NCBI GenBank assembly: GCA_040954595.2
Contig: CM082578.2
Location: 2,896,831-2,960,830 of the forward strand
Length of the DNA: 64,000 bases
Direction of reading: 5' to 3'
From: Balanoglossus misakiensis
Lineage: Eukaryota > Animalia > Hemichordata
A model generated the notes under the pieces. The model worked only from the letters and a program-made list of their open reading frames with translations. It ran no database searches and was not told where the DNA came from. Every line of letters begins with the position of its first letter. Positions within the stretch are counted from its first letter, which is position 1. The translations under genes were made by a program, and so were the position numbers. This document shows, one piece after another, positions 21,327-64,000 of this stretch.

Positions 21327-21649
21327 GTAATTAGACAACAAAAATCAGCAACCTCTTTAAATTTACTCAAATGACTCGCACATTGCAACAGAACTCATAG
21401 CCTTTAAAGCTAGATAAAACAGACAAACTGTCAAAATCTATGAGAAAGAACTTACCTTTCAAGTAAACTGCACCATTGTTGTTCCTTTACATTCGTTCCA
21501 CAGCATAAATAAAAGCCCCAATAGCTACCAATTTTTGAATCCCCACAATTTCAAAATGGCGTTTATTTTGTCGACTAAAGATAATGAAAAAATTTAAGTA
21601 TTTTATTTATTTAAATATATGCTTAAAGTGGCAGCTACTGGGGCTTTAA

Positions 21650-24285: not shown

Positions 24286-26645
24286 TCATCCTTGCAGCAA
24301 GCTTGTACAAGGTTGTGACATCTTGGTGACTTTCGTAAGGGGTAGCTTACCACTGAGTAAACCCATCCATGAATCAACGACAAAGTTATTACTTTTGACT
24401 GCAGTGGTGATAACCTGTAACAAAGAACCCTGGTGTTGCTTCAATATATCTTCTGTATACAACTTTTCACAGAGGGTTTCCAGAATACATGTAAACAGGA
24501 AACAGCCATCAGATATATGGGTCAAACCTCCCCTATCATGCAATTCCATGTGCTTAAGACTTTCAGGAAACTGGGTGCTGACTACAAGGTCAGAGTAAGG
24601 CACCTGGAGCTGTTGAAATAACTGCAACAATTCCCTGTGTATAGAAGATTTGGCCCGTGTTTTCGCAGACTTGCCTGACATGGCATTTACCATACTGTTG
24701 TAGCACTGACTGATCAACTTGCAAATACACCAGCCACCAACTTTTCTCAGTTTCCCTTGCATTGCCCTATTAAATGTTACAGGCGTGTCAGAGAGATCAT
24801 CTACCAATACTACATCATCAGATAAACAGACGTCTCTCACTGGTACAAGACTTTTCATCAAACACTTATTCACCTCCATGATGACAATCATCATTACAGA
24901 ATGAAACTGTGGAGGAACCACACCAGTACCTGAACCCAACAGACCATACGACCTCAAAACAATTTTCCAATACTTATGAACAGTACTGTCCCAAATCACA
25001 GCAGCAATATCAGCACACTGACCTTTCAGGATTCTGTTACTAATATGCTTTGTGTTTCCCATGCATGTCTTAATGGAAGAGTTACTCAAGTGATGAAAGA
25101 TATACCGAATAAAATCCACCAAAACACCATTCCTAACTTTGGGATCAAAGAAACCCAGAGATTGCATTATGCCAACCGTCTCCGTTGAATTAAGAGGATC
25201 ACTACCAAGTTTCAGCAGCATGTCATCCAGAGAAATGTCATTATTAATGGTACATTTGGGAATTGTATCATCACATGGAGAGTCAAAGACCACAGTGGTT
25301 ACAACAGGTGTGGAGGCCAACCTATCCATATCATCAGAGTCAGGTGGCAATAGAGGACTCAAACATTTGGAAATAGAAGGAACTACAAGGTGCCCGACTG
25401 TCACAACAGATACTTCATAAAAACTTCTCACATGTGGGTGGGCTGGTATGATGTTGTGAGAAAATCCTGGTAAAACTCTAAGGCATTCAGGGCTTGCTGC
25501 CCTCGTGTATGCAGTGTATGCTTGACCGGGTAAGAACATGGCCACATCACAAACCTCAAGATTATTCAATGTGGATCCTTGGCTTTTATGAATGGAAGAA
25601 GAGTACCCCAACTGTAATGGAATTTGGAGGCGTGTTCCAATTGTTTTCCCTGTGTCATCAGAGACAGAAAAATACCTCCGTCTAACTATAACCGTTCTAC
25701 CATCTTCAAAACTAACCTTAGGGAGCCCACTCACAAAATCAATTACATGACCATGCAGACCATTACACAACAAACCACCACTAACATTGTAAAGGTTGGT
25801 AAGAAGAATGACAGGACAACCTTTCTTCAATATTAGTTTCCGAACAGCATTTACAGCTTTACCCGAAGTACCACAAACACCAGTATCTCTAGCTAAGAAA
25901 ACTTGAGGTTCACCAGGAAATTCCTCAAGCCTAACAGCATTATATATAGCAACATCTTTACGACGTGGATACAGTCTAATATCAACACGTGGAAGGGGCC
26001 TTGTCAATAAGCTAAGATATTCAATTGTAGCCTTGGATTTAAAACCCTGGCGTATATCCTCTAATGCCCTTAGAAATCTTGGATCTCTCTGCCGCATAAC
26101 TGTCTCAAGAAATACACAAACATCTACGGTACAATCCCATGCAGTCGACTTGAAACAATAGTCAGGCATCTCTTTCTCCGTGCCAATACAATCAACTGGG
26201 GGAAGCTGGCAGAAATCACCCGAGAAAATCACACGAATCCCTCCAAACGGCCCAGTTGTACCTTTAACAGTTCGCATAATGAACTCAATTTTATTGAGCA
26301 GACTGCCTGACAACATGGAAATTTCATCAACTATAAGCACTTAAGTTGACCGAAGCTTATTAACAACATACTGCTTTTCCTGAACCAATTTAAGTAATTG
26401 CAAATTACCCCATTACCCTGACCAATGCCAAAAGCTGAGTGAACAGTTGAACCACAGATCAAACTGGCAGCCTTGCCAGTGCTGGCTGTAACAAGAACAC
26501 CTTCTTCTCCGAGTTTATGCATCTGTTCTTTGATTACATGGCGCAACACAACGGTCTTTCCAGAGCCAGCTCTACCAGTAATAAATGTGTTTGCATTATT
26601 GCAAATGTTCTTGACAACCTGCTGTTCATCTGTTAATTCTGACAT
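24286..26645 (-). pseudogene. Intronless Pif1-family SF1B helicase with a C-terminal extension; one frameshift near 26340, 3' end cut by a repeat
   Basis: GRAGSGKT, ASTGKAA, GSTVHSAFGI, DEISML, GDFCQLPPV, MRQRD, LKKGCPVILLTNL, QIPLQLGYSSSIHKSQGSTL, GQAYTAYTRA. C-terminal VGGWCI...DRGGLTHIS. Confidence 0.85.
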
Positions 26646-29600
26646 TTTCCCCTTCAACAACAATTCCACCAGATAAATTGTATACAAAACTGGTCGCACC
26701 TCAGAACACTTAACACCCTCTCAAACTGTCAGTCACCAAACTCAAAGCAAGACGCGGGAAAATCAGGTCATGTGACAAACGAAATGTACCACCAGCTACA
26801 AGACTTGAAGTTGAACTGGGAAGATTTACCTTAAAATTAATTTATATCACATAGACCTAGGGAGAACAGCAGTAAAAGTGGTAGAAAACGTCATACAGAA
26901 GCAATATCGACGCCGGAAATAGAACTTACACCAGAGAAAAGCTGCAGTGCGTTCACAAATATGCAATTGATACCTCCCTACACAGTAATAGATGACTGAA
27001 ACCACGGACACAAAAAACACCTAAAAACACACCTCCTAGAATAGAAGCCTGCAAACCTTATTATACATGTCATGAAATCGATAAAATTATAATAATAAGC
27101 ACACACTTAGCTATGAAGTTCCGATGACATCAACAGCTCGACGATACGCGCGCGGTGTCCGTGTATCACACTGCCACCATGATCACGAACTGAAGATGAA
27201 GCTGACGACGCGCGGGAAAGTGGTGCCGTTTTTCTGCGCAAGACTACGTATACCTTTTACGGCGAAATTTGCGACATTCATAAAACACCATTTTACATCA
27301 GACGCAAAATCGGTAACGCACGTCCCCAGGACGAGTGACACTTTTCGATCGATAATATCTCGAATGTTCGACCGACTTTTGAAAATTGAAAAGCCAGACA
27401 TTAGGTTTCTATCTAATCTAAAACGCATACTCTGATTTGGTAGCGATCTTCTTCGTAATAGTTGCCAAACGGCGGTGGGCTGAAAATTCGTTTCATACCC
27501 TGTATATATGTGTACTCACGTACACGTACACAGCAACGGCGCGCACGCATGCGTACATTAGGTAGAAGAACAAAAACAGCTCAACACGATCGCGATGCGA
27601 TGTCGTACAACTGTACAAACAGGGCATAGACAGGTACGCGTACGGTGTGGATTTGTTAACTGACCCAGCTTTATTGCAGTTCTCGTTCACACACAAAAAA
27701 AAACGAAATATTTATTGTGTATTCGTTGAGGGCGCCGCGTTTATGTTAAGTTTATCATTATCCATACACTTTATTGTTCCATGACGCCCGTGGATGAAGA
27801 CGTTGGAATAAATTTCAGAACTCCCGGGTATGTAAACCTATTGATTTGGGATTAGATTTTCATCAGTAGTCCTGGTAATGTAGTACGGGAAAATAATATA
27901 ATGGAATACATTGACAACTTCAACCATTTTTATCTTTCATTTAGAAATGTCCCCAACTTATCGATGGATGATGATCTCCACAATTTAACAATGGAAGATG
28001 AAGTATTTCAGACAGATACTCATGGTACAAATGATGATGGTGTCCCAGTTGCAAGTCCTGACAATCTGTCAAACGCTCAAAACATGGATGTTATTACAGA
28101 CACAAAATGCATCGCCTCTGTACCTGAAATTTTGGATCTTTTAAAACAATTGCATGGAGATTCATGTAAACGGGATGGATGCCAACGTGTACTAACATAC
28201 AAGTCATCTTTAGTTGGAACTGCACTTACTGTTGAATGGACATGCTATTCTGGTCATCGCGGAGGGAGGTGGCAGTCCCAAAGAAGGTTTGATGGAATGT
28301 TTTCTGGAAACTTTCAATTGGCTGTCTGTATCTTGCTGTCTGGTAACAGTCATAAGAAGTTTGAACTCCTGTGCAAGTTTTTAAATCTGGCTTGCATATC
28401 ACACACTACTTTCAATCGAATCCAGCGACTGTATGCTGCTCCTGCTATACAGAACTACTGGGACAATATGGAGAGGGACATGTTGGACTCATACCAAGGG
28501 CAAAAGGCTATATTGTGTGGTGATGGCCGCAATGATTCTCCTGGACATTCTGCTCAGTATTTGTCCTACAGTTTGGCTGATGCAAACAAGCACTGCATTG
28601 TCCACACCGAAGTGGTGGACAAGCGCGAAGTAAATGGTAAAAGTCCAAACATGGAACGGCTGGGATTTGAACGATCCATGGACAAACTGAAGAGGTCTGT
28701 AGAGATCGAGGAATTGATCACAGATGCCCATGTACAGATTGCTGCAGTGATGCGTAAGTTATAGCTGCAGCACTTGTATTGGGAACCCCAAATATCAACT
28801 TCAGTAGAGAAATGGGGATGTAGCAATATGCCAAAGCAACTTACCTAGCTAAAGTGTTCTCTTATTTTGAGTGGCAATGTGAGATTGAAGATAATACAGC
28901 AAGGTAGATACATTCATGTGTATGGTTATAAGATACACTTCCTGTTGTGTACAATCTTTGATCTTACCTTGCCATTCATTGGCTGGGAACTACAATTTCA
29001 CCTACTTAGGTGTTCCAAATACAAGTGCTGCAACTGTAATTGTTAACTTTGTAGTTCTGTTGAATGTGGGGATAACTTTCAAAAAGAATTTTCGTCTTCA
29101 ACATGATAAATGAGTGTAGACTGTTGTTGCAATCCATGTATGTTTATGTGCTAGCTAAATATTTAACAAAAATCATACAATTTTTGTAATACAATGCTGT
29201 TTTCTTCCATAATCTTCAGGCAACTGTGACAAATACAAGGACATCAAACATTCATGGGACCTTTGGCATGGAGGTAAAAACATTCATCGAAAAGTCCTGG
29301 AGGTAGGCTGTTACTTCAACCTTTGATCTGGTGTATGCCAGTACACAAATGAAATATCGTAGCATATGCCATCTGAATTCCATCCAAAGTGTGAACAAAA
29401 TACTAATCATATGACACATTTTCAGTGTTACTGTTGGCCATTCACCATGTCAACTGCAAATTTATTTTATTCAGGCATCAAAGCCTAAGAATTGCAAGGA
29501 CCTTTTGCACTGGGCTACTGCAGTGAGAAACCACTTCTGGTATGCTGCAAGAGAATGTAATGGAAGTGAAATAAAGATGAAGGTAACAATAATTTTTGAC

Positions 29601-30599
29601 GTATCAGTTTTCTGTGCACCACAGTAGCTTACAATCATAAGTTGCATGCATGTACAAATAATTCTTGCAAATCAATTAGCTGCTGTGCAGTGTGCCCTCT
29701 AACAAACAATTTTTAAAAGCTTTGAGTCAATTTGAAGATTTCTAAACATTTCTCCGAGCAAGCCCTATACCTTTGCTTGTAGTGTGTAAAATTTTATGAG
29801 TCACCAGTGAGTTTGTTGAGTCAGTGGCATGTCATATGGCCTTAAAGGGCTCACTTCTGCTGTGTATTTGTGTGTGTTTGTAGATGGATGTATGGATGTA
29901 CATTGTATGTGAAGGGGTTGACTGATGGGTGTCTGATCCCAGACATGTCACCATATACAAAGAAGTTTAGCATTACTGAACAATACATGTCTTTCTGTAT
30001 GTTCTTTGAAGGCAATCTGGTTTGGAATATTGCATCATGTCGTGAACGAACATGAGTGGGTGTTAAATTCTGATATTTTCCCATTTGTAAGTATCAGTTT
30101 TAGCTGCAGAAACCTCCATATGTATTAAAAAATAAGCAATGACAGCTGTGTATATTTCTTCTATCAGGTTCATTGCCAAGTATTCCAAACTGAGCAAGAG
30201 GTTTTTCCCAGCACCTGTTTTGAAACCAAAGACGTACGCGTACATCACTAATTTGCAGAAGAGTGTTTTCCAAATGCGATTGGGTGTTGAAGGTCATATG
30301 TCACAACATGTGTCAATGACAGAAGATCATCCTGGCCGGATCTTCAAGAGAGTCAACATGCTCCCCTCTCCAGACATTGCCAAATTAGTAAAAGCACATT
30401 TGAGTCGGTTTGAAGGGTCCAAAAGTTCCCAAGAAAGTAGAAACACCTCAACATGATCGGCCATTTTTGTACCCGGAGTCACTGAAGAACCGCAAAAGCA
30501 ATTTTAAAACAAGTGACAGTGAAATGGACCTTGTAAGCTAATAAAACTCTTTACACTGGGTTCATGTAAATAAAATGTTTTAATCACCAGATATGTGTG

Positions 30600-32451
30600 C
30601 TAATCTTGTACCTCACCATCTTTATAGCCAACATATATATTGTTTGGGCTTGGAAATCTGCCCCTTATTGCCCAGACACAACAAGAGGGGACAACGCGCC
30701 GATTGCCAGCCCCCAGTTTCCCATGCTGCCAATAGATGTACTGTCTGTACGCAAAATGTCTAAAACATGCATTGTCTCGTGACTGTTCTTGGGCATAGGT
30801 ATCAGCTATGCACCGCATAGCTATCTCAAGAACATTCGCATCCAGAACAAGATGACTAAAGAGATAGTTGTCGGTGATGCATCTTTGGCTCTGACGAATG
30901 GCACAACATTTGTTTTCCTTCTGAGTGGGCATTTCACGGCAATGCACCAAGAAGGTAAACTACCAGGTCCGGGTTGTGGATACGGGTTGGGAGCTGGATG
31001 CTGTTCCTGTTGTACGTCACACCATGCCTCTGGCTGTCGTCGGACTAGCTCTAGAGTCAAAGTCTCCAGATCTTCCCTGCTTGCCTTTTGTACAAAATCC
31101 TGTTTGACAAAAACAAAATACCCCCATGAGGTAATCTTGCACTGACAAAAATTTACAACTTTTTTATGTAAACTTATTTTTCATAAACAAACAACGTTTA
31201 TTGGAATCTTATTTTGCAGTGGAAAAAATGTCATCATTGTGTTTCATAATATACTGTGTGAAAGTAAAATGTGTGCAAAATTAGAATGGTTTCTCACGTT
31301 GGGGCGGCACACTTCCTTGAAAACCATATATGTACAAACATTTAAAAGATATATAATTGCGTGGTTTCTCTTCAGTTTACCCCCGTTTTGTTTTGTTTGT
31401 TTGCTGTTGTTGTTGTTGTTGTTGTTTTTTTGGGGGGAGGGGGCGATATCTCAGTCACTAATGCATTTTCAACAAGTTCATTCCATGATCAAGCAGAGTG
31501 CACACAACATTCATAGGACATACCTTCATCTGCCTCTCATTGTCTTGCAACAATTCTGCTTGTGTTTGCTGTTCCTGGGTGTCACGTGGCCGTTTTTTTA
31601 CAGATTCTGAAGCAGGTGGTTGTACCTCAGCCTGTTCATCATCAGATGTTGAATCCTATGAAATGATGATGATGATAATAATAATACTGATACTTGCATT
31701 CACATTATTATTGAGCCTCAAAGATGTTTTGATCATAGCTTACACTCACCTACAAATATGACTAGTTGTAGTGAGCGAATCATTGGGTTTCTGACGGATT
31801 TGTCAATGCAACATCACAAACACTGCACTGACGATTTTTGTAACAAAGGTTTGTATGAAATCTATACTACGACAGGTTAAAATCATAGCACGCCAAAACT
31901 GTTCGGAAACACTGCAACAAATGTTGAGCTGAGCAGTTACATGGTACGTCCGAGACTTGGTGCGGCCCGAGTATTGAAATAGCGAGTGTTCATATATTGC
32001 ATCGCAATCGTTGCATAAAGTTGTTTACGCTAGCGAACGCCGAGTTTGCATTGGAATACGGCCGAACACTGAAAGTTCGTGTCAGGGTTATGACGAATAA
32101 CTCTATCTACGGGAGCTTTACAGTACTGATATGGGCCTCTTAAAATTCGAGAAACAGACTGTTTGACAGCACGTCCGATCCCGCCACATCGATAATCAAG
32201 CTTACATTGAATTGATGATTGAGGGTGACAATAAGACGTAGACATACCTGTATAGCTGTGTTTGAACACGGCCGTCGCTTTCCACAAGAGCATGCCGTTT
32301 TACAAAACTCATCGACTGCTCTGCACGGACATGCTCCACGTCCTTTCTTCCTTGCACAAACCCCACTGCAGTTACACGATCTGGGGTCTTCACTTTCTGC
32401 CACGTCTAGCGCTGCTGCGATATCACTGAGAGCGAAGCTATCTTCGGCCAT
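30600..32451 (-). pseudogene. Kolobok accessory gene KolX (N-terminal CXC-like Cys cluster; C-terminal P2X7 ballast/nanor-like domain)
   Basis: Exon 1 has CNCSGVCARKKGRGACPC...CKTACSC. The last exon has CREMPTQKENKCC...CIT...FRHFAYRQY..WQHGKLGAGNRRVVPSCCVWAIRGRFP. There is a small frameshifting deletion near 30945. Convergent with the transposase. Confidence 0.75.
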
Positions 32452-33019: not shown

Positions 33020-36000
33020 TGTAGTATCCTGAACACTGTTGACCTTTGACCCAGTTTTGACTACAATTTCATGGTGAATACTCGGAAAAATGTCCCAAGG
33101 ACACAATGCTAACGGGAGCCACATGAAACCTATAGACATTGGAGGTCTGACGAGTTTCAGTGTGAACGATGACCCGAACACCATTTCTCAGCGATGGAAG
33201 AAATGGAGGAGAGCATTCGAACTGTATTGGTTAGGAAAGGGAGTAACAGACGAAGCACAGAAACGAGCATTACTGTTGCATACGGCAGGGCTGGAAGTGC
33301 AAGACATTTATTTCACACTGATCGGTGAAGATGCAGCTGCAACGAAAAACTACAAAAAGACACTGCAAGTATTGAACGATCACTTCTTTCCCAAAGCAAA
33401 CGTCCCAGTTGAGAGACACATGTTCAGACAAATTATGCAGGCCAGTGATGAAACGGTCGATCAATTTGTGTGCGGACTCAGACAGAGGGCAAGCACATGT
33501 GAGTTTGCTGAGAAAGAGGATGAGCACATAAGAGACCAGCTGATCGATAAATGCTTTTCACCGCACATGCGCAGAAAACTACTTGAGAAACAGAACGCTA
33601 GTCTCAGTGACTTGTTGATGGTAGCGCATGCCCAGGAAGCCGTAGATGCTCAAATGCAGTCGATGGGAGGAAGCACACCCCAGCAACCCCAAGTAAATGC
33701 AGTTATTGGGAGGAAGCAAGGTCAAAAGAGAAATACCCCAAGCGCAGGTACGAAACGCTTTGGTGGGAACACTTGTCATAACTGTGGGAGACAAAGACAT
33801 TTCGCGAGAGATCCTACATGTCCAGCTAGAGGACAGAAATGCAGACATTGTGAGGAAACAGGACATTTTGTCAGAAAGTGCCCTAAGAAAATACCCGAAA
33901 GTACACGCCAGGCAGAAAAACCCAAACGCTATCAAGGTCATGGGAGAAACAGAAATGAGAAAAGTGACAATGCCAACTACATTGAAAGCGAACAATGTGA
34001 ACAGAAACCGGCATACGTGTTTACTGTTGATGAAAGTCCTAACTATGACAACGGAGTTACTTCACTGAATATCGGAGGCGTCGATGTGCCAGACGTTCTG
34101 ATTGATTCAGGGGCAACTTGTAATCTGATGGGTCAACCTACAAGGGAATACCTGAAAACCCAGAGAGTACGTTGTACGTCGCGCAAGACCGCACGAGTAC
34201 TATTCGCCTACGGTTGTACGGAACCACTGCCAACGTTAGGTACGTTCACCGCCAATATTGCGTCACCAGATGATTTGAGGTGCACAGCTGACTTTGTCGT
34301 CATAAAGGGCGGAGGCAGAACATTGTTATGCAGAGAGACTGCGGAACGCCTGAAACTGCTTCGCATAGGACCCACAGAAATAAACAGCGTCAACAGGAAA
34401 TCGGACGAAGACATCCGAGCAGAATACAAAGATATACTACAGGTTGTCGGACTGTTGAAAGGCTACGAACTCAAACTGAATATTGATGACTCAGTAAAAC
34501 CTATCGCGCAGCCAGTTCGCAGAATTCCATATGGGCTACGAGCAAAGGTCGATGCCAAACTGGATGAACTATTGTCAATGGGAATCATTGTAGAGATACC
34601 TGAAAGACCGACAGGTTGGGTGTCGCCATTAGTCGTCGTGCCGAAGGCAAACAATGATGTCAGAATATGCATTGACATGAGACGCGCGAATGAAGCCATA
34701 GTCGTGAACGTCAACTGATTCCAACGGTAGATGAGGTACTGCAAGACATGCACGGCAGTACAGTTTTCAGTCGTCTTGACTTGAAATGGGGCTTTCACCA
34801 GATTCAGCTCAGTGAAGACAGCCGCCATATCACTAATTTTGCTACGCACAGAGGACTGTACATATACACACGACTGATGTTCGGTGTAAACTCTGCGCCA
34901 GAAAAGTACCAACAGATAATACGAGATGTATTTCGCGACTGCAATGGAGTCGAAAGTATTGCCGACGACGTGATAGTACACGGTAAAGATGACCGCGATC
35001 ACGATGAGAAATTGTTCGCCGCTCTAAACCGCGTGAGAGAAGTTGGACTGACTCTGAACGCCGAGAAATGTAAGTTCAGAATGGCGAAGTTGACATTCTT
35101 CGGACAAGTACTGACACAGAGAGGTGTAAGTCCGAGCGAAGAGAAAGTAGATGCGATCCGAGATGCAGAACCGCCGAAGAACGCGAGTGAGACCAGATGG
35201 TTCATGGGTCTTGTACAGTTTCTATCGAAATTCATTCCTGATTTGTCGTCGATAGCGGAACCGATACAGAGACTGACACGCAAAAACGTCATGTTCGAGT
35301 GGAAGACTGAACAACAGAAAGTGTTCGAGAAACTGAAAGAGTTGATTACACGAGCAGAGACACTAGCATATTTTCGCATGGATTGTAACACGAGAATAGT
35401 TGCAGACGCGTCACCATACGGGTTAGGTGCGATCCTACTACAGCTACAAGATGGTGAATGGAGAGTCATATCATACGCGTCGAGGAGTCTCACAGACGTA
35501 GAACGGCGATATAGCCAAATGGAGAAGGAAGCATTAGCGTTGGTATGGTCATGTGAGCGCTTCAACATGTACATCTTCGAGAGAGAATTTGAGCTTGAAA
35601 CGGACCATAAGCCATTGGAGTGTATATTCTCCAAAAGCTCAAAACCGTCTGCCTGAATTGAAAGGTGGGTGCTGCGATTACAGGCCTACAACTTCAGAGT
35701 CGTTTATCGTCCCGGGAAAACAAACATCGCAGATGCACTGTCTAGGCTGAACTCTAGAAACTATCGCGATGAGGGAGACAGATACGACTACGCTCGTACA
35801 GTTGTCGAAAGTAGTGTACCAATTGCTTTGACAGCGAGGGAGATTGAGCGAGAATCCGCTGCTGATCCAGAACTAAACTGTGTGAAAAACTGTGTAAAGA
35901 CAGGTGACTGGAGAAACTGTAACCTGCAAGCCTATACACATGTGAAAGACGAGCTATGCACGGTGGGAGAGATACTTCTACGTGACAGCCGAATCGTCAT

Positions 36001-37517
36001 TCCACGATCGATGCGAGATCGCGTATTGGAATTAGCACACGAAGGGCACCAGGGAATCACCAAGATGAAAACCAGATTACGCTCAAAGGTGTGGTGGCCC
36101 AAGATAGACAGAGATGCTGAACGAGTTTGCAAAACTTGTCATGGATGCCAGGTGGTCGGACAGTACTCGGTACCAGAACCTATGTTCCGTGTCATACCGC
36201 CAAGTGGGCCATGGCAGGATTGTGGTGCTGACTTACTAGGACCATTACCCTCAGGAGAACACATACTAATCATCGTAGACTACTACAGCAGATATTACGA
36301 GGTCGCGATACTAATGTCGATAACGAGCGCCAAAATTATCGATGCATTGACCCCGATATTTGCGAGATTTGGAGTGCCATATTCGCTACGCACTGACAAC
36401 GGATCCCAGTTGATATCTGACGAGTTCGAATCCTATCTGAGAGAGAACAGTATCGAACACAGAACAACGACACCATTATGGCCGCAAGCCAATGGGGAGG
36501 TCGAACGGCAGAATAGAACACTCATGAAAGCAATTCGCATTGCTCAGGTAGAATCCAAAGACTGGCGAAGGGAGCTGCAGAAGTTCTTGACAGCGTACAG
36601 GTCTACGCCACAGTCGACTACAGGAGCTACACTGTTCTATATGATGTTCAACCGCGAGATGAAATCCAAGTTACCGGAATTGCGCCGCGAACCAACGGTA
36701 ATTGATGAGGAGATCCGCGATCGTGACTGGTCCAGAAAGATAGCAGGCAAAGCTTATGCAGACACAAAACTCCATGCAACGACCAATCCAGTATCAGTGG
36801 GAGATAAAGTTTTGCTGAAGAACAACAAAAGCAACAACATGTCACCCAACTTCATCCCAAGCCCATACAGAGTTGTTAGCAAACAAGGAGGAGAAGTTAC
36901 TGTGAGGGGTGAAGACGGAGCCGAATATAGACGCAACGTTACATTCGTGAAGAAGTACGAGAAATGCAGTACAGAAAACAAACCAGATCTGGATGTGTCA
37001 CCAGTCAAGTCTGCTACAGAGAAGTCACCAGATTTGATTGCCACAGATGTTTCAACACCAGTGAGATCCAGACCCAGTCGTGCTGCTAGGATGCCGAAAC
37101 GCTTTGATGATTTTGTGATTGAGAAAGGCTAACCGTGACACTTATTAGCTGAATAGTGTTTCATATGTTTCATTGCATTTTATTGTTCCAGAAAAACACT
37201 CGATAGACTCTGAAATGATTGAAACCGGACTTGAGACACTATATTCTCTATATATTTCTTTGAAAGTTCTGAGTTTGAATTTGAGCGTTTTGCAACAGTG
37301 TTCATATGTTGATTGCTGTAGATTAGTTCGGTCAGGAACATATCAGTGATCTGAGAAAAGGAGGGATGTAGTATCCTGAACACTGTTGACCTTTGACCCG
37401 AGTTACCCAGAATTCCGTCTGTTGTTGTTGCTGCCCTTCCATGGCGGACATCTTGTGTTCACATGAATAAAACGTTACTAATCTGTTCACATAACGGCCA
37501 TCTACGTGGACACTATA
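33020..37517 (+). mobile_element. Ty3/Gypsy LTR retrotransposon with a shortened 5' LTR
   Basis: Both LTRs start TGTAGTATCCTGAACACTGTTGACCTTTGACCC (33020 and 37367). Polypurine tract GAGAAAAGGAGGGA precedes the 3' LTR. The 5' LTR is only about 46 bp versus about 151 bp. Confidence 0.9.
33090..37132 (+). pseudogene. Gypsy gag-pol (Gag with CCHC knuckles, protease, RT, RNase H, integrase); frameshift near 34710 and stop at 35654
   Basis: CHNCGRQRH and CRHCEETGH, LIDSGAT, LDLKWGFHQ, IADDVIV, DASPYGLG, TDHKPL, AHEGHQG...CKTCHGC, TDNG, NGEVER. Domain order is PR-RT-RH-IN. Confidence 0.92.
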
Positions 37518-53625: not shown

Positions 53626-55152
53626 ATAGCATGGACACTTCAACTCAGGGGAACTCCTGGAGGCTTGGTCGGCACACATAATGACTGAGTGTATGAAGAA
53701 ACAGTACAGCAGACTGTGGGTTGGTTTTATATGAGTAAAATTGCTAGAAATAAACATTCACAAATTGAAATATGCCAAGTAGTAGAAAAGACATAAGATG
53801 AGCTGAAGTATTATTCTGTACCACCAGAATATCTTTTTCGAAGACAAATGTCTAAATGTTTTTTTCATGCATGTGAACTGAGTTTGTTTGCTTAGTGGGT
53901 TTGAATAAATGAACGTACAGGCCTGCACAAGCATTGATTGGTGTTTTGATCCTTTTCTTACATGCCAATTATGAAACAATTTTCATTACTTGAATTACTT
54001 TAAATCCAGGTTTCTTCATCCCGCTAATTTTAGTACAAAAGTTTGCAAAATATTCACATGGTCCTGCTAAGGTATTTCAACAATATTTTATTTGTAAAAC
54101 AAAAAGGAAATAATTTTTCTATTTTACACGATTGATTGTCAAAGCAAAAGATATATGGAATGAACACACACACACACACACATATACAATGTAACTACTG
54201 ATAGTGGATGTGGGATATATAACCATCCGGACGTCGTTTATTGTACAGCCCATTGGCTACCTCCTTGGGCGATACCATTACTCTTAGGGTTGCCGAGACT
54301 TATGTTTCACTGAAGGTCTGTTCCTGCGAGAAGTGAACAATTTAGCACAGAAACAAAAAGCTCACGTTCTTGCAGAAACATAATGGTGAGTTTGACACCC
54401 TAAACTGAGTTACAATGGCAAAACAAATTTTGACTGAACAAACCCCCTGATAGTATGTGAAATATCCCATGATTCATTCTCTACATGTGTAGAGAAAATT
54501 GTAGACCACTAATACAAATGTTGAGATCGTACTTTTATGGTGAATCATATTGTCAATTACCATTTCAAATGATTTTAAAAAAATCATGCATTATTGAGAG
54601 AGGAGATACGAATTTTATAAAATAATCAAGCAATTGCATAGCCAGCTATATAACAAAGTTTGAAACACTTGAAACACCTGTTTATTCAAACAAAAAGATT
54701 TTTTTTTTCTATTGACAGAACAATGGAAATTTACATGTTAACTTTCAACAGAGACTGGTCACCTCAGTTAGTCATTGCTTGTTTCCTCCAAAGTGTGCCA
54801 TTTGCAGTACATGGATACTTTGATTCCTGTGGCTTTCAAATTTTGATTTTGAAATTTTCACTCTAATTCCTCAACATACTTTTCCTAGATAAAACACATT
54901 TATATGTACTTCATATCATTGTTAGTATCTAAAACAGAAAAAGTTATTAAATGGGCAACCTCGATGATAAAAATCATGGAGAATTGTGGGTAAAATATCT
55001 TACTGTGCCTCTCGGCCACCTCAAAGTAATGGTATCGTCCAAAGGGGTAGCACTTGGGCCGTACAATAAACAAGGTCCACCATCCAACTGGAGCTTGCAA
55101 AATATGGCATATAGACAATATAAAAAACAGGAATAAAACATGTTCCCTGGTG

Positions 55153-55515
55153 TTAATCCTGGATCTGTCCATCCCAATAACCAACATAAACAATGTTGGG
55201 GCTGGGAAACCGTCGCCGAATTGCCCAAACGCAACACAAGGGAACAACACGACGGTTCCCAGCACCCAACCTCCCATGTTGCCGATATATGTACTGTCGA
55301 TAGGCATATTGTCTAAAACAGGCATTGTCTCTCCTAGGTTGATCTGCATACACATCTGCTGCCCACCGCATGGCCACCTCTAAAACATTTGCATCCATAA
55401 CCAAGTGGGAAAACAAATGTGTGTTCGTAATGCAGCCTTGGTTGCGACGAGTGGAACAACATTTCTTCTCCCGCTGTGCTGGCACTGACCACACTTGCAC
55501 CAGGGAAGACTGGTG
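55153..55515 (-). pseudogene. KolX (P2X7 C-terminal-like) last exon, cut by the RAG-like element
   Basis: SLPWCKCGQC..EKKCC...CIT...FRQYAYRQY...RLGAGNRRVVPLCCVWAIRRRFP. Similarity to copy 1 stops at 55515. Confidence 0.75.
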
Positions 55516-55557
55516 CACATCGCATTCTCTGTTAGAAATTTGCTCGTTCAATTACGC

Positions 55558-55815
55558 GCGCATGCGCCAACTTTCAGCCAATCAGAGTTTGTAATTTTAG
55601 CTTGAAATGTGTAGCGCCACCATCAGTGAAAATTAAATACCTTTAACGGTTCTACCCTTTCGTGTGACCACTCTATCTGATATTTGCTCCCATAAACCCC
55701 TATGAATGACTACTGAGCATGTGCAGAGCATACTACCAGTAACTAGGGTAAAAGTCATCTACCATAAGTCGAAATCGGGCCGAAAACGGCCGTCTACTTC
55801 AACATCGAGGTAAGT
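55558..55815 (+). promoter_or_regulatory. Putative RAG1L promoter and non-coding first exon
   Basis: GCGCATGCGC (NRF1-like) at 55558, AGCCAATCAG CCAAT box at about 55577, strong donor GAG|GTAAGT at 55810, acceptor TTTCAG at 56038. Confidence 0.4.
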
Positions 55816-56039
55816 TTTTTCGATTTTTTCAAATGTCTTCTAAAACGATCTTTTTTGACGCAAAAATTGTCGTAAGATAAAGACTGTGTAACTGATCGGC
55901 CGCATTTTTTAGTGGAAACCTATTATTTTTCTGTCAAAGACCGTGCCTCATTGCATCCAGGAAAACAAAGCATAACACGATCGAACAGCTGTTTTTCAAT
56001 GGCCGCGATTTTGAATGTCATGCTGTTTTTGTTTTCAGA

Positions 56040-59000
56040 ATTTCAGATAATTACAAATGTAAAATAGCCAATAGGTGTAGGATATATGCCCGATCCCGTA
56101 GTAGTAGTGATACTGAAACTTTTAGAGAGGCAGTACAGTATACCACGGAGATCAACGACCTCTTCCAGGTGAACATTAGTGTAGACATCCCAGACGTCCA
56201 CCCGAGAATAGTTTGCCCCCAACTGTAGGAAGGTTTTGAGTAGGTTTAGGAAAGAGGGCCCTGATAATTTCTGTACCAGCCTGAAGTGTGTAGTTTTCAA
56301 GCCACACCATGATAATTGCCAGCTGTGTTTTTATAAAGGTAGTTAAAAACTCTGTAGTATAGTTTAGAAGTTAGAGGTCATTGCCTCCATAGTATAGTCT
56401 TTTAGCAACTAACATATATAGGATAAAATATATACGACCATATCAGCTATAGTTTCATCAAGGCTTCTGTAGATGTTTACTATATACAAACAAGTCTGTG
56501 CTTCCAATATGAGAGCATTCATAGAAAGATGTTTATTGCATATTCAGTATGACAGTCTACATTTACTAATATTTTTCTCTTCATTTGTTTGCAGAGGGAA
56601 GTCTTGGAAGTACTATTGACCACTCATATGCAGTGACTGAAACTACAAAAAGAGATAGACCTCGTAAACGGAAAGGATGTTTTTTTGGCAGAAGGGAAAC
56701 AAAAGAAAAGTAAATGAGTCAGACATAGAGAATGAAAGGCAATGTGATTCAGATGAAAGTGAAAATCAAAAACTGAATGATACAAAATGTACAGAAGCAC
56801 TCGAATTAAATGATGGTTTAAATAAATTATTGAAACAACGTTTCGGTATTTTGAGTACTGTTGAATCCGTTGTGACTGACACAGGGTTTGAATTAGAAAG
56901 GTTTATTGATTATGATACCGCTAGTCTATTTAATTGTTCCATCTGCCGTTGTGTTTCTGGTCAGCCAGTGATAACGCACTGTAATCACATTTCATGTGCT
57001 ACTTGCATGTACCACTGGCTGTTAATGAACAAAACGGCAAACACGTGCCCAGTTTGTCATGAAATTATTGACTATGAAAATAATGACACAGATATTGTTC
57101 AAATTTGTCCGATATTTGCCTGATGTGTATAGGAATTTGAAATTGAAGTGTGTGTTTTGTTCTTCTCTCTTTAAAGTTTGTGATAATTTTAATCATGAAA
57201 ATGTCTGCTCTAAACAGGGAAGTGGTCAAGTACGGCATCGAGGCAAAAGTCGGAAAAAGTTACCACTTTTTGAAATCCCACCATATTATGCTCGTAGACG
57301 GGTACTTGAGATAGATAGAACTATTGATGATTTTTGCACTACAAATTTTGAAATCAAAAGAGATGTCCTTGTGTTCCTCTTGGCTAATCATTTACATGAA
57401 TCTGGTGAAAAAGAAAGGAAACAAGCTAGCTGATCTGTTCAAAGATAATTTACCAGATATTAACTGAATATGCTCACGTGCAGTACTGTGATAAGTTGAC
57501 AGAATAACAAGACTAGAAAAACCAGTGTTAAACCAATTTGGTTTATAGTGTATATGGTGTAACGGTTGTGTGTTGCACCATTGTGGAATGTAAACATGTT
57601 TGTGGAATTGTTGCCTTGTCAATTTTTGTAAGGGGTTATGAGTCATGTACCCCATCCTGAACTGCATAAAAAGATAAGTCTATGGAATTCTAAAACTCGT
57701 TGATCAAAAATGGCAAGAAATATACCAAAAAGTATGAATATTTCACCAGATTTCAACAAATCTGATTTCTGTTCATGCCTAAGAACCTCTTTAACAAGTT
57801 TCAATAAGGAAGACATTTTGGCAAACAACAGGTAACTCAGACAAATCTGACTGATATCACATATATGAATTCCCATTCAAAGTTTCCAATCAATTGGACT
57901 TGTGGTTTTACTGAAGACTATTTGGCCAAACCCTGCAGAATTCCCAAAAAATACAAGTATGCACATTTCTTTACAATTTGATCATATCTGACTGAGATCA
58001 CCCCTAGAAACCCAAATACAAAGTATCAAAACAATTGCACTTACAGTTTCACGGGATTTGATTTTTTGACAAAAACAGGAAATATTGCCCAAAAATGCAT
58101 TTTTGCAAATTTCACCACCGTTTGCACAAATGTGATTCAGGTAAGCCCTATGAACCTCCATACCAAGTTTCCAATCAATTGGACATGTAATTTCAGAGAA
58201 GAAATTTGTTTAACAAAACTGCAGAAAATTCCCCCAAAAATTCATAAAAAATAGCCAACACCAGATACTGACTCCACCTGAACAAAATCATACGAGGTCT
58301 TCCCATAGTACTTGCACACCAATGCACGCCAATTTTTAACTGAATCTGATCCGCTGTTATTAAGTTTTTCAATTTTGACTATTTGAACATTTTTCCAGTT
58401 AATACCAGTATGCATTTTTTCGCAAAAACAATTTCTATGTACACACTAAATATCAGTAGTTTCAAGTTTTTGATGTTGATGGACATACACATACATACAT
58501 CAATACATTTAGACGAAACTGATCCATTCGCAAAATACATAATTCTGTATGAGGCACACATACAGACATACATAGACGACGGACACCAACTTATGCTATA
58601 AGCTGACATTGATATACATGTTAGCCAAAAACCAAAATCAACCTCAAAATAGACATTAAAATATATTGCACCACCATGAGAAGACAAATTCATTCTTCGA
58701 CAAATTTTCTGGGGCGTCATTGATATAGCATGGCATATTGTCAAAGTACGTAGTCTCTGTGATAAGATTCCATACACACAAAATGGTAACCTTGGAAGTC
58801 CAGCTGACGTAGTTATGCAATGGCGTCTCGTGTATTCCGTCGCCAAAAAATCATCGTAAAATTGATAATCGGGGTCACAATTCAAGACGACTTTCTCTAA
58901 ATTCTTTATGAATGGATTAAATCGAAATCGAAATGTTGACGTATGACGTACGGAATGAGATCTGAACAGACATTCAATGTTATCATTCTCGCTCGATCAC

Positions 59001-61537
59001 ATATTGGGTAGGCCATCTAGCAATCGCTATATAGTATTGGCGATAACAGACTGTCTATAAATTCACAAAACGGATTTTACTGTTGAGTGTGATCAACCGT
59101 CACGTTATTTTTCTCTGAACAATAGACAAATAGAAAGCCTGGTGACATTTTGAGATTGACTGCGTGAGGACCACAATATGAATGAATCATTTACGGTTTG
59201 TCTTGATGAATGGGTCACGTCATAGTCATAACGCGGATTCGGCTGCACGCCAACTATCCGCCATATTGTCTCCACTAACTTACTCGTAAGTAGTTTCAAA
59301 CTTCATTTGAAAAGAGTATTCGTCTGACGGTCCTGTAGATTAACAATTTACGCTCTATGAAGCAACTAAACAACGTTAGCTTCCTTGTGGATTCACGTAG
59401 GGAAGTTATTCGTAACGACGGGTACAGCGTCTGAGCATGGACAGAACAACGGCAATATCGCCAGGAATGTCTCATTTCACAGCGCCCTCAAACAGTCGAT
59501 CTCCTCAAACTATCGTTTCCAATGGTCATATATGCGGCATTAACGAAAGCTCACATAGACAACCATGTAATAGAAAAATTAAAACTTAAATAACTTCATT
59601 AATATCAAAGCCACACCCACCAAAACCTTTTCAGTTCTTGCCATATGATATCTAAACCTGTGTACTAAATTTGGTTGAAATCGGTTCAGCGGTTCTTGAG
59701 ACACACACACACATACATACATACACACACACAGACATCGCTAAACCATAAGCTCACGTGATTTTCACGTGAGCTAAAAATGTGAACTAACTGTGGAAGA
59801 AAGTCCGGCAAGCAGAATTGATACACTTCAGACAAAAACTCAATATATTGAGCAATATTGCTTTTTGAAAAGTAAAGGTGTTTCTGCTGTTCAGCAGTCG
59901 ATTGATTCAACTAACAAACTTGAACGAGAGCTGATGCCAAGTAACGTTGAATTCTGGGTCCAAGGGATTGGGGGTACTGAAACCTACCATCATAAAGCAT
60001 CACTTAGTGTGGGGGACACTGAACCTTTGGATGCATGTGCTGCAATATCATTCAGTGTTGCTGATTTCACTGTCCCAAACATTCAAGGTTCTAGGTTTCC
60101 ATACAATCAGGCAATAGCAAAATCTCTTCAGGAGCTTGATGATGACATTGTTATGGGATTGCAAGCACATGGCATTGATGAAAATTTGATATTGGATACA
60201 ATAATAAAAGATGGAGAATATGGTCTTGGGGATGTAAAGGTTAAAAAATATGCATCAGATACAGCCCTTCCTGACAAAGCTTTGCGTTTTTCATTCTGTG
60301 TGTACAAAGCTAGTGTGTGTAGAGATGGGGAGTCTGTGGATGTGTTTCTAGAAGATAACCCCTCCTGTGTCAAAATAAATCGCCCAGACCCCACAGCCCT
60401 TGCTGACGAAAACTGGGGCAGTACATGTAGTGTCCTGTTCTCAGAAATAAATGCAGAAAGGTACTGGTTAAGGGGGAAAGTAATGAAAATAAAAGTTGGG
60501 GATACATATCGACATCACAAACTGCACTTCATGCACTCTATGGTTGATGAGAAACTGTCACAGGCTGAATCTGGACTGCAGGGTGCAGGTTCTGCATATA
60601 TGTGTGACCTATGTATAGCAATAAGGCGTGATGCAAAAACTAAAATGGGAACATTTACAATAAATCGGTCATATGACCAGCATGTTCAAATTGCTGAGTA
60701 CATAAAACAGAATCCTGATAATCTGTCAATAAGTGCACTTAAACAACTCAATCAAGGAGTGAAAACAATGCCTTTGTTTAGAGTTGAAACTCATGAAAAG
60801 TCAATTGATGCCACGCATGCAGATATAAATATTGCAAATTATGTCAAGAAAATAATTGTAAGAGAATTTGCAGGGGTGTCCAAATGGGAGGTATCTGATC
60901 AGAATGAAACTGTGAGAAATGCAGAGAAAAATGTAGACAGGCATTTAAAGTCCACCCTTGGAATTAATCCTCAGCTTATGATGCCAGGCAACTATGCCAG
61001 GCAGTTGTTTCACCCAGAGAACAAAGATGTTGTTGTAGCCCTCATTAGTAATGATGAGAGAAGAAATAATCTGGCTCTCTTCCTTGACAAGTTTAGATTT
61101 TGTTGTACAATCTACAGAGCCTCAAGAGAGTCTCTTTTGGGTCCCTTGAAGGAAGACGTCAAAATATACAAAAAAGCAGCAGTAGAAATGGGGTGTATAT
61201 TGAGGGATAATTTTTCTTATGTGCCTTTCAGTAATTATTTTCATAAAATCATTGAACATGTTCAGGAGTTGATAGAAGATCCAAGGGGACCTGGGTCACT
61301 TGGTGATTTGTCCAGTGAGTGTAATGAGGCTGGTAACAAGCTCTTTCGACTTTTGAGATGTCATCATAGCAGACGTAACTCCCAGTATGAAATCAGGCAT
61401 ATTATGTGTTTTCAGTGGTTGTACTGTAGCAAACGTTTGCACAGAGCAGCTACACATGCTAAGCTTGTGTACTCTTGTAGTGTTTGTGGTAGGGATGGGC
61501 ACACAAAAAAATATGTCCACTCACAAAGGGCAAGTGA
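56040..61537 (+). pseudogene. RAG1L: RAG1-like recombinase/transposase, full domain architecture, decayed
   Basis: CND 56040-56338 (Y-x7-CRIY, DIPDVHPRIVCPNC, FKPHHDNCQLC). Intron 56339-56594. RPRKRK basic patch. RING CSIC...CNHISCATC...CPVC. ZnF CVFC...HENVC. NBD-like GKSRKKLPL...ARRRV. Core ORF 59793-61568: RFPYNQAI, KDGEYGLGDV, LPDKALRFSF, ADEN, VDEK...GSAYMCDLC, HADI, MMPGNYAR, NYFHKIIEH, SECNEAGNKLFR. CTT CSVCGRDGHTKK(I)C. Several 1-nt frameshifts. Confidence 0.92.
57420..59780 (-). mobile_element. Helentron-like (HINE) insertion(s) splitting RAG1L between the NBD and the dimerization region
   Basis: Hairpin AGCTCACGTGA-TTT-TCACGTGAGCT at 59751-59775 next to an A-run and a (CA/TA) microsatellite. 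Matching GCTCACGTG at 57472. A second similar end near 58600-58630. The left boundary is uncertain (57420-57510). Confidence 0.65.
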
Positions 61538-61539
61538 AT

Positions 61540-62010
61540 TATGTATTGGGGGGGGGGTGTGTAAATAGTGAAATGTAGTGAATTTTTTGATAAAATCTCA
61601 TAAGTTATAGATAGGCAAGAACCATCCAGTGTACTGTTTGAAATCAATTTAAACACGGGTGATGTAGTTCAAAGTGATATGGGAAAGCATAATGCAATTT
61701 CTGGACATAAGATGGTTGAAATAGGAGAAAATATAATCATAACTGGAGGTTATCCTAAAAATCAACTTTTATTAACAAAAGAACATTGATTTTAAAAGAG
61801 AACATATGGGGTATACATGTATATACATGACAACCTCAAAGCAATTCACACAAACTCAAGTTACCATAATCATGCCAGTACTATTTTTGCATTTCTGTAT
61901 ACACAGTATGTGGTTCGACTGGTCTCATACAAAGTGCTCAATACCTCACCAGAGCAGAATAAAAATAGTAGCTGAAGAACAATAGGCACTATATAATCTC
62001 TACAATGTTG
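61540..62010 (+). pseudogene. Possible RAG2L 3' remnant (kelch blade plus degenerate PHD-like motif)
   Basis: 61604-61789 reads RQEPSSVLFEINLNTGDVVQSDMGKHNAISGHKMVEIGENIIITGGYPKNQLLL (kelch GH...hhhhGG). 61896-61937 reads CIHSMWFDWSHTKC (C...WxHxxC). Short and broken. Confidence 0.45.
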
Positions 62011-62299
62011 TTTCATTAGTCACTAGCACTGGGGTCACTCATAAGGAGACTAAACTATCAAAAATACAACGGGGAAGCCATGATTTTTAAACATACACAA
62101 GTGATGCAATGTTGATTAGGGTCACACTTACACATAACAATGTGTACCTTCTTATTCTAATTTGTTGTGTGCAGAGTTCCTACTCTTAATTGTTGCAAAA
62201 CTATCCCTTGTGTCTGTGTCCACATCAGGACACAAGTTCCTTTCTTTTATTGACTGTTCACATTTATCAACTCACATATTTCATATGTATGTATGTATT

Positions 62300-63960
62300 C
62301 CAAATGAATTCCAAATCTTGTAAACTTGACCCAATCCCGACTTCTTTGCTGAAAATGTGCCTTCCATATACATCAACACGTATCACAGACATAGTAAATA
62401 AGTCATTTATTTCTGGTGTTTTTCCACAGTGTCTAAAACATGCCATAGTTAGACCTTTACTGAAGAAGCCTGGATTGGATCAAGATAAATTGAAAAATTA
62501 TCGACCTGTATCAAATCTTTCGTTTATTGGTAAAGTCATTGAAAGGATAGCAGTAGATCAACTACATCATCATTTAAAAATGTCTCAGCTGTATTGCAAA
62601 TTTCAATCTGCTTATCGAGAATTCCATAGCACAGAAACGGCTTTGCTAAAGGTACATAACGACATTGTAATTTCTATCGATAGTCATTCAGAAGTGATTC
62701 TTGTTCTTTTAGACTTGAGTGCTGCGTTTGATACCATTGACCATGACATTCTTTTGAGGAGGTTGGAGACTCGCTTTGGCGTCAAAGAACAAGTACTGGA
62801 GTGGTTTGCGTCATACCTAAACGGACATACTCAGAGTGTAATGATTAATGGCGTCTCTTCTGAACCGCGTGAACTTTTATATGGAGTTCCACAAGGCAGT
62901 GTGTTGGGGCCGTTATTATTTACACTATATTGTGCGCCCCTTGAGGACATCATGGAAAAACACTTAATAAGCTCTATGATGTATGCTGATGATACACAAG
63001 TTTACTTAACCTGCAAGCGAGCAGATCATTCAAAGTTGCAGATTGAATCTTGCGTGGACGAGATTCGTAAATGGATGGCCGTGAACAAGCTTGTTTTAAA
63101 TGACACACTAAGACAGAATTAATTCATTGTCATTCGAAATTCAGACCCTTTACACCGCTACCCGAACTAAGTGTCGGTACAGACCTAATCACCCCTTCAG
63201 CCGTTGTCAGAGACCTTTGCTTTTATTTTGACAGTGATGTTTTAGCTCAAACTCAAATTATACAAGTCTGTAAGTCAGCCTCGTTTGTTTTAAATCGCAT
63301 AGGTCGTATCCGTAACGTTTTAGATAGAAAAACTACTGAAAGATTAATTCACGCCTTCATAACATCACTACTGTAATAGCTTGTACATTCATCTTCCCGA
63401 GTATCTCATTAACCGGTTACAACGCATACAGAACTCAGCTGCTCGTTTGGTAACTCGTACTAAAAAATCCGAACACATCACGCCGGTCCTTCAAGAGTTA
63501 CACTGGCTCCCTGTCATCCATCGAATATATTTCAAAGTTCTTATTCTTACATACAAATGTCTTTGTGGCCAAGCGCCAACCTATCTGTCAGATCTTCTTG
63601 TTGTTTTCAAGCCATGTAGATTGACGCGTTCTGCGAATGCCACAAAACTTGTTGAGCCTCGTTTTAACCAGGAGCATTATAGTAAAATAACTTTTTCGGC
63701 AGCTGCTCCCAGGCTATGGAATTCCCTTGACGCTTCAATTAGAAATGCACCTTCCCTGTCTTCTTTTAAATCCCAACTTAAAACCCATCTTTTTATGAAA
63801 GCATTCATACACTAATTCTTTTACATATTTTACAACTTTTATATACCCTTTTTAGCTTGTATTATTACTTAGTGTACTTTTTATCATGTTGTAAAGCTCA
63901 TTGAGATTTTATTCCATTATGTAATGCGCTATATAAGAAATAAATATTATTATTATTATT
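62300..63960 (+). mobile_element. 5'-truncated L2-clade LINE
   Basis: KSCKLDPIPT, NYRPVSNL, LDLSAAFDTIDH, GVPQGSVLGPLLF, YADDTQ, QNSAARLV, HITPVL..LHWLP. AATAAA and an (ATT)n tail near 63940-63960. Confidence 0.9.
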
Positions 63961-64000
63961 TCTCTATGTATAAAAACTGTTGTTCATGTTAAAGGAACAA

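Follow-up and report, generated by a model that had tools for sequence, protein, structure and literature searches.

The 64-kb stretch of DNA analysed here, hereafter called the window, harbours a dead, full-architecture, transposase-type invertebrate RAG1-like gene (RAG1L), followed on the same strand by what is very probably, judging from profile and motif matches, a remnant of a RAG2-like gene (RAG2L; 61538-61985). Indeed, a 596-codon open reading frame (59778-61565, + strand) encodes a RAG1L catalytic core that matches the amphioxus RAG1L (PDB 6B40) with an E-value of 1e-133 and, more weakly, vertebrate RAG1 (E about 1e-67), and that is recognized by the Pfam RAG1 model (E 4e-69). Comparisons were made in particular with PflRAG1L_C, the published family C protein of Ptychodera flava, whose row was taken from the supplementary alignment of PMC7204232 (whole-genome shotgun accession BCFJ01036631.1). 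The features of the locus are as follows:

55810..56038 (+): predicted intron of the 5' untranslated region (5'UTR), with a GTAAGT donor, a pyrimidine tract and a CAG acceptor, proposed from sequence only
56040..56338 (+): predicted RAG1L-C coding exon 1, zinc-finger region C1, C2 and C3 (profile and tblastn)
56339..56594 (+): predicted 256-nt phase-1 GT-AG intron, likewise proposed from its letters alone
56595..57451 (+): RAG1L-C exon 2, 5' part, with linker, RING/zinc-dimerization domain (ZDD) and a region like the nonamer-binding domain (NBD) (Pfam, profile, PflRAG1L_C row)
57452..59776 (-): inserted high-copy repeat of 2,325 bp (joint 57451->59777, depth, repeats)
59777..61537 (+): RAG1L-C catalytic core and CCGHC tail (BLAST, Pfam, codon check, PflRAG1L_C row)
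61538..61985 (+): likely RAG2L remnant, with the second half of kelch blade 5, blade 6 and a PHD-like part (profile, motifs, by-eye match)
61922..62299 (no strand assigned): multi-copy stretch overlapping the end of the PHD-like part (depth 271 in record 6 of sequencing run X1, raised bin depths)
62303..63950 (+), right end approximate: 5'-truncated, broken long interspersed nuclear element (LINE) with a reverse transcriptase (Pfam RVT_1, E 5e-31)

A codon check found each residue described in the first-pass annotation at the place given there. In RAG1 numbering, (i) D708 (GAT, 60546) and E962 (GAG, 61326) are intact, as is the H795 site (CAT, 60816), (ii) all four zinc ligands are kept (Cys 60603, Cys 60612, His 61242 and His 61257), (iii) the D600 site is TAT, coding for Tyr (60219-60221), and (iv) the E649, R848 and S963 sites read Val (GTC, 60369), Met (ATG, 60978) and Ala (GCT, 61329). 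The last three states had been presented as diagnostic of a transposase; they do hold for RAG1L, but their diagnostic value was overrated. Among 31 aligned invertebrate RAG1L homologs, 28 have Val at position 649, 30 have Met at 848 and 20 have Ala at 963; the published PflRAG1L_C row carries all three, Met 848 holds for RAG1L family A too, and positions 649 and 848 show the same states in protostome RAG1L (PMC7204232). In the sequences compared, they are the default states of invertebrate RAG1L, ordinary rather than distinctive. Asp occupies position 600 in 30 of the 31 homologs, a Gly present in 31 of 31 is replaced by Cys at 61320, and a 3-amino-acid deletion precedes the D600 strand. The marks of family A are absent: position 649 (60369) is Val and not E/Q, the gene lies outside the clade that clusters with RAG1 (see below), and no GRPR/K motif was found in the NBD-like region (57104-57418). 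The Cx2Cx3GHx4C tail is present across a one-base frameshift in a run of seven A (61505-61511), and the stop codon (TGA, 61535-61537) lies in the frame of this tail. The repair of the tail by one added A, proposed earlier, agrees with PflRAG1L_C, in which the tail is intact and reads GHTKKICPL at this place.

The N-terminal pieces were examined with a RAG1L profile built from 31 homologs, the window row being left out. Its matches are collinear, covering profile positions 6-68 (E 3e-6) and 57-100 (E 0.15) in exon 1, 140-253 (E 3e-12) and 201-333 (E 5e-16) in exon 2, and then 335-923 in the core. Since this independent profile matches the pieces in order, the N-terminal pieces and the core form one gene, as the first-pass annotation had assumed; they also match one published protein. 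The 5' part of exon 2 contains a Pfam zf-C3HC4 (RING) domain above cut-off and is, by eye, near-identical to PflRAG1L_C. The intron at 56339-56594 is predicted because splicing here would bring C3 into frame with the beginning of published PflRAG1L_C: the printed N-terminus of that protein starts inside exon 2 of the window and does not include C1-C3. Family C would thereby gain a predicted N-terminal zinc-finger exon (C1-C3) that is absent from the published protein; the section on the N-terminal domain in the preprint 10.64898/2026.01.24.700457 names families A, B and D only. In this exon, the second Cys of C1 is a Tyr.

The claim that this copy is dead holds: D600 has become Tyr, no ATG opens the frame, the 2,325-bp insertion interrupts exon 2, and five frameshifts are present (near 56220 in a run of C, 56690, 57103, 57420, and in the A7 run at 61505-61511). 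The first codon of exon 1 is ATT, at 56040, directly preceded by the predicted 5'UTR intron, and an ATG>ATT start loss at this position is plausible. The insertion reported earlier as 2.3 kb has exact ends at 57452 and 59776, and its excision rejoins the frame as in PflRAG1L_C.

The possibly divergent family considered in the first-pass annotation is one that has been described before, namely RAGL_C of P. flava. Over residues 1-578, PflRAG1L_C and the window differ by 47 substitutions and one 3-amino-acid gap, that is about 92% identity by hand count (531/578); PflRAG1L_C has Asp at position 600 and is intact there. By comparison, the core is 38-45% identical to its relatives in the protein database (33 matches, the best at 45%), and among the best 150 of 356 representative matches identities reach 57% for short fragments only. 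BLASTP identities of the core are 44% with Pinctada, 42% with amphioxus and 40% with the B-type of P. flava, but only 30% with the A-type of P. flava and 31% with turtle RAG1. On residue identity, the window RAG1L is thus a member of family C, which the open-access literature searched describes from P. flava only, and does not represent a new family; the locus likely extends RAGL family C to a second organism, an acorn worm close to P. flava. The literature on this family describes one inactivated copy bounded by target-site duplications (TSDs) and terminal inverted repeats (TIRs), plus several TIR-only copies (10.1101/100735), and reports no similarity between the TIRs of families B and C of P. 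flava (same source).

A tree was inferred with a quick IQ-TREE run on 43 rows picked from 250 proteins for a near-complete core (last 680 amino acids, support by SH-aLRT only); its rows include neither PflRAG1L_C nor family D, and neither a named Transib nor a named Chapaev. The A and B labels were assigned by tree position and by the match of protein P0027 to the printed start of PflRAG1L_B. The window appears as a lone branch of length 1.27 among RAG1L, outside the clade of RAG1 and P. flava A, and not sister to the B-type references. Five proteins in the collection (P0074, P0113, P0132, P0135 and P0137) are deeply divergent RAG1L/Transib-like sequences with CCGHC-like tails; P0074 runs about 760 amino acids beyond the RAG1L C-terminus, in unrelated sequence.

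Thirteen sequencing runs were listed, with no RNA run among those sharing sequence with the window. In two of them, both from the same sample (organism A), 87-96% of the words of the window were found, as against 5-10% in ten others from three studies (organism B). Contigs of four of these runs were compared with the window: X1 and X2 (organism A), and X3 and X6 (organism B; X6 is marked as probably DNA). In organism A, no contig has another letter at 60219, and record 3 of X1 (56022-57452) and record 10 of X2 (56150-57435) show 0 other letters and 0 gaps. Because these contigs repeat the window there, Tyr600 and the four upstream frameshifts are real. Within 59777-61951, the organism A contigs (X1, X2) show one gap with respect to the window, located in X2 within 61278-61951. 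Contig depth in X1 is 50-61 over the gene versus 45-47 in unique flank contigs, which suggests a single RAG1L-C copy in this sample.

The contigs of organism B are about 93-94% identical to the window (record 24 of X6: 113 other letters out of 1,769). They carry G at 60219, hence Asp600, in four of four X3 and two of two X6 contigs, as well as the published PflRAG1L_C residues at 60048, 60388 and 60391, and other repeats of the window are also found in this organism. We infer from these sequences that organism B is P. flava or very near to it, and that the DNA of the window belongs to a closely related organism. Record 24 of X6 exceeds the window by 12 letters and shows 22 gap letters; this is no proof of an open frame. 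A second copy type in organism B (record 19 of X3, record 25 of X6) is about 82% identical (149 other letters out of 842), has Asp600 and lacks the 2,325-bp insertion; it could possibly represent an undescribed RAG1L-C subfamily.

The insertion itself is skipped by the joint 57451->59777 in contigs of all four runs, and its depth in run contigs is in the thousands. It contains a terminal palindrome, a 4-nt microsatellite and tandem repeats of 141-144 bp, and it sits between TTT and AAAA with no TSD. The feature list given for HINE elements in PMC7492417 comprises subterminal or other inverted repeats (subTIR/IR), a 4-nt microsatellite, central tandem repeats, a T-rich target and no TSD; the features seen here match it, and the insertion may be a HINE/Helentron-like, probably composite element. 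The empty site 57451/59777 is present in organism B and in the window-like sample itself (X1, X2), and for the latter reason the insertion may be heterozygous and recent.

Immediately after the RAG1L stop, the + strand reads, in order, a GG motif, EPSSVLFEINL, GHKMVEIGENIIITGG, a frameshift and C-x4-W-x2-W-x-H-x2-C. The stretch is broken by stops and by this one frameshift, and it follows by eye blade 5, blade 6 and PHD of the printed RAG2L rows; the PHD pattern given in PMC7204232 is matched with one Cys read as Trp. A RAG2L profile was built from seven sequences (fetched loci and a homolog search), and its best match in the whole window is this remnant (E 0.085). The score of 8.4 bits is reached by 0 of 1000 shuffles and by 0 of 1000 random window stretches, the latter overlapping so that roughly 120 are independent, and on the minus strand of 61538-62000 no frame scores above -2.1 bits. 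The six frames of the 64 kb contain a single kelch motif and five instances of W-x-H-x2-C; here the two stand in the right order. Although the scores are low, these matches make a RAG2L origin of 61538-61985 likely. A minus-strand similarity at about 61900-62010 to RAG1L C-termini (E 0.18) was attributed to chance, the RAG1L profile having failed to confirm it. As to fusions of RAG1L with RAG2L, a search for longer proteins returned one, BbeRAG1L, which is weak evidence, and among 250 stored proteins the RAG2L profile matched only the four RAG2L proteins and no fusion.

The orientation of the remnant calls for an explanation. Animal RAG1L/RAG2L pairs are reported to be invariably convergent, a same-direction pair being described from the alga Aureococcus anophagefferens, with RAG2L upstream (PMC9435367). 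RAG2L was present in four of 13 fetched loci; there it always lies on the strand opposite to RAG1L, and its match stops about 200-420 nt beyond that of RAG1L. Convergent RAG1L-RAG2L pairs occur in the metagenome contigs L001, L004, L008 and L012. In L008 the RAG2L frame is 457 codons long and includes kelch repeats and a PHD, and this contig has close relatives in other assemblies. In the window, the remnant lies on the RAG1L strand, contrary to the convergent layout, and the RAG1L stop and the remnant leave no room between them for blades 1-4. No description of the orientation of RAG2L-C was found in the open-access literature searched.

The preferred reading, to which a probability of about 0.7 is given, is that the locus is a fossil cut-and-paste copy of RAGL family C in which RAG1L is dead and a local inversion brought the likely RAG2L fragment onto the strand of RAG1L. 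The inverted segment would run from about 61546 to the LINE junction at about 62300, and its reversal would restore the convergent spacing: 61985-62300 leaves a gap of a size like the 200-420 nt of the convergent loci. The multi-copy stretch 61922-62299 is a candidate for the inverted RAG1L-RAG2L intergenic region, or else an unrelated repeat; Rfam and tandem-repeat (TRF) scans of 54000-64000 gave 0 matches. In organism B, records 20 and 24, from two studies, follow the window to 61545 and end after 54 unmatched letters. Such ends would be expected if, in organism B, the RAG1L stop were followed by the multi-copy stretch that now occupies 61922-62299 in the window. Contigs of this relative start at 62303.

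The active ancestor would have worked like ProtoRAG. A RAG1L-RAG2L tetramer would bind TIRs starting with CAC, aided by the CCGHC tail, the D600/D708/E962 site would cleave the DNA through a nick followed by a hairpin, and insertion would generate a 5-bp duplication; these steps are described for ProtoRAG-like elements in PMC7204232 and 10.1101/2023.08.20.553239. To judge from the literature on the family, an enzyme with M848 and V649 would be capable of transposition and of uncoupled cleavage.

Several observations weigh against this reading. First, the element ends are undefined, because no TIR/TSD pair was found in the window: a repeat finder, a heptamer scan and an all-pairs scan gave nothing above chance, and out of 5,312 CAC/GTG pairs the best one is 13/16 identical without TSD and the best one with TSD 10/16. 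The right end of the element either is cut by the LINE or may lie past 64000. Second, the remnant reaches only E 0.34 in tblastn and rank 4 (E 5.5) with a four-sequence profile from locus fragments; among 184 bins it comes second, second and first in three scans that allow for frameshifts; it has no Pfam match, and gave 0 matches at E<=10 in a PDB search. Third, the first GG motif depends on a run of 10 G that could be a junction scar, the GG-to-Trp spacing is 58 codons versus 48 in four references, and the region and its motifs were picked after inspection of the sequence. Finally, none of the 15 joints listed, out of 33, changes strand, and the tree is a quick one, without bootstrap and without a named Transib or Chapaev.

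Alternatively, family C could be natively head-to-tail, with RAG2L downstream, this copy having lost blades 1-4 by an internal deletion just past the RAG1L stop. The + strand position of the remnant is what such a layout predicts. The sequence behind the PHD is multi-copy, as would be a 3' subterminal region common to non-autonomous copies, and another stretch, upstream of exon 1, is mildly so, but the depths of the two stretches differ several-fold. Martin 2020 set RAGL_C aside for a low-confidence RAG2L prediction. The algal pair does run in one direction, with RAG2L upstream, whereas animal pairs are reported as convergent without exception, as are all four RAG2L-bearing loci here, and both organism B contigs end only 54 letters past 61545. 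A native tandem arrangement is therefore considered unlikely. It is just as doubtful that family C is the first animal RAG transposon with a head-to-tail RAG1L-RAG2L pair and a complete RAG1L that includes the N-terminal zinc-finger domain, and with an intact subfamily (the type about 82% identical, with Asp600) in the relative; if the same-strand layout were native, the rule of always-convergent animal RAG1/RAG2 pairs would fall.

It is quite improbable that 61538-61985 is not RAG2L at all, the similarity being due to chance or to an unrelated kelch-like sequence and the real RAG2L lying beyond the LINE or outside the window, or being lost. The marginal window-wide E-values, the lack of Pfam and PDB matches, the post hoc choice of motifs and the overlap of W-x-H-x2-C with the start of the multi-copy stretch fit this view, but the best match of the RAG2L profile in the window falls directly behind the RAG1L stop, none of the 2000 controls scores as high, and the motifs are rare and correctly ordered. 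A domesticated or functional gene whose lesions are assembly errors is highly improbable: the gap in 59777-61951 and the empty site in window-like contigs indicate that the insertion and one homopolymer could differ between alleles or be peculiar to the assembly, but Tyr600 and the four upstream frameshifts are matched in organism A. The chance that the core is a Transib or Chapaev with unrelated N-terminal pieces is close to negligible, for although Chapaev also has a RAG1-like N-terminal domain and a RING (PMC4411706) and a Chapaev-like element is present in the window, the core is 38-45% identical to RAG1L versus less than 22% for Transib (PMC7204232), the similarity of the Chapaev-like element to the RAG1L profile is confined to the N-terminal part of the latter, and the pieces are collinear and match one published protein.

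This Chapaev-like element (9264-14685, - strand) is a multi-exon transposase with a 349-codon open reading frame, a RAG1_imp_bd match (E 5e-8) and a RING. Core-like pieces follow down to 9264, which from their motifs are tentatively assigned as its core, and the element shows no DNA similarity to the RAG1L N-terminus. The combination of Chapa and RING fits Chapaev as described in PMC4411706. Other features of the window include: pieces of a P-element/THAP9-like transposase (17781-21331, + strand), with TNP-like RNase H domains just under cut-off; a PIF1-like helicase open reading frame of 684 codons (24289-26720, - strand; E 7e-15), possibly part of a mobile element; a Gypsy-like long terminal repeat (LTR) retrotransposon gag-pol (33078-37129, + strand) with three long frames, a zinc knuckle and an integrase; a high-copy element resembling a miniature inverted-repeat transposable element (54229-55078), with inverted ends of 60-70 nt (about 82%) and a depth above 10,000 in window-like runs; and a dispersed repeat at 55150-55484 and 30597-30931, the two copies being 72% identical.

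V(D)J recombination descends from RAGL transposons, and few of their branches are as poorly known as family C, which in the literature examined is represented by P. flava alone, with one inactivated full copy, a RAG1L without N-terminus and a RAG2L too uncertain to be used. The present locus gives it a predicted first exon, a first look at what are likely blades 5-6 and PHD of RAG2L-C, and a pointer to a second subfamily. It leaves the account of RAG domestication unchanged, and its value is for specialists.

Compared with known systems, the locus is closest to RAGL_C of P. flava, with which it shares the RING, the NBD-like region, V649/M848/A963 and the CCGHC tail, and whose published copy is also described as inactivated. 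It differs from it by Tyr600, the 3-amino-acid deletion, the five frameshifts and the 2.3-kb insertion, and by the upstream C1-C3 exon, which is not in the published protein; moreover, the organism label of the window-like runs is not that of the relative with the P. flava residues. With ProtoRAG/RAGL-B (BbeRAG1L, 6B40), it has in common the domain order, the catalytic-site positions, the zinc residues, the V/M/A states, the CCGHC tail and an NBD-like region without GRPR/K, and the mechanism is likely alike; core identity is only 42%, however, and the window yielded no TIR/TSD pair. RAGL-A and jawed-vertebrate RAG1 share with it the RAG1 core fold, the N-terminal zinc fingers and the RING, and RAG1L-A also M848 and the CCGHC tail, whereas their cores are 30-31% identical to that of the window, which lacks E/Q at 649 and GRPR/K and falls outside the clade of A and RAG1. 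Finally, AanRAGL of A. anophagefferens (PMC9435367) likewise has RAG1L and RAG2L on one strand, but its RAG2L, located between TIRs and upstream of RAG1L, is intact, whereas in the window a broken 3' fragment lies downstream, likely as a result of a secondary inversion.

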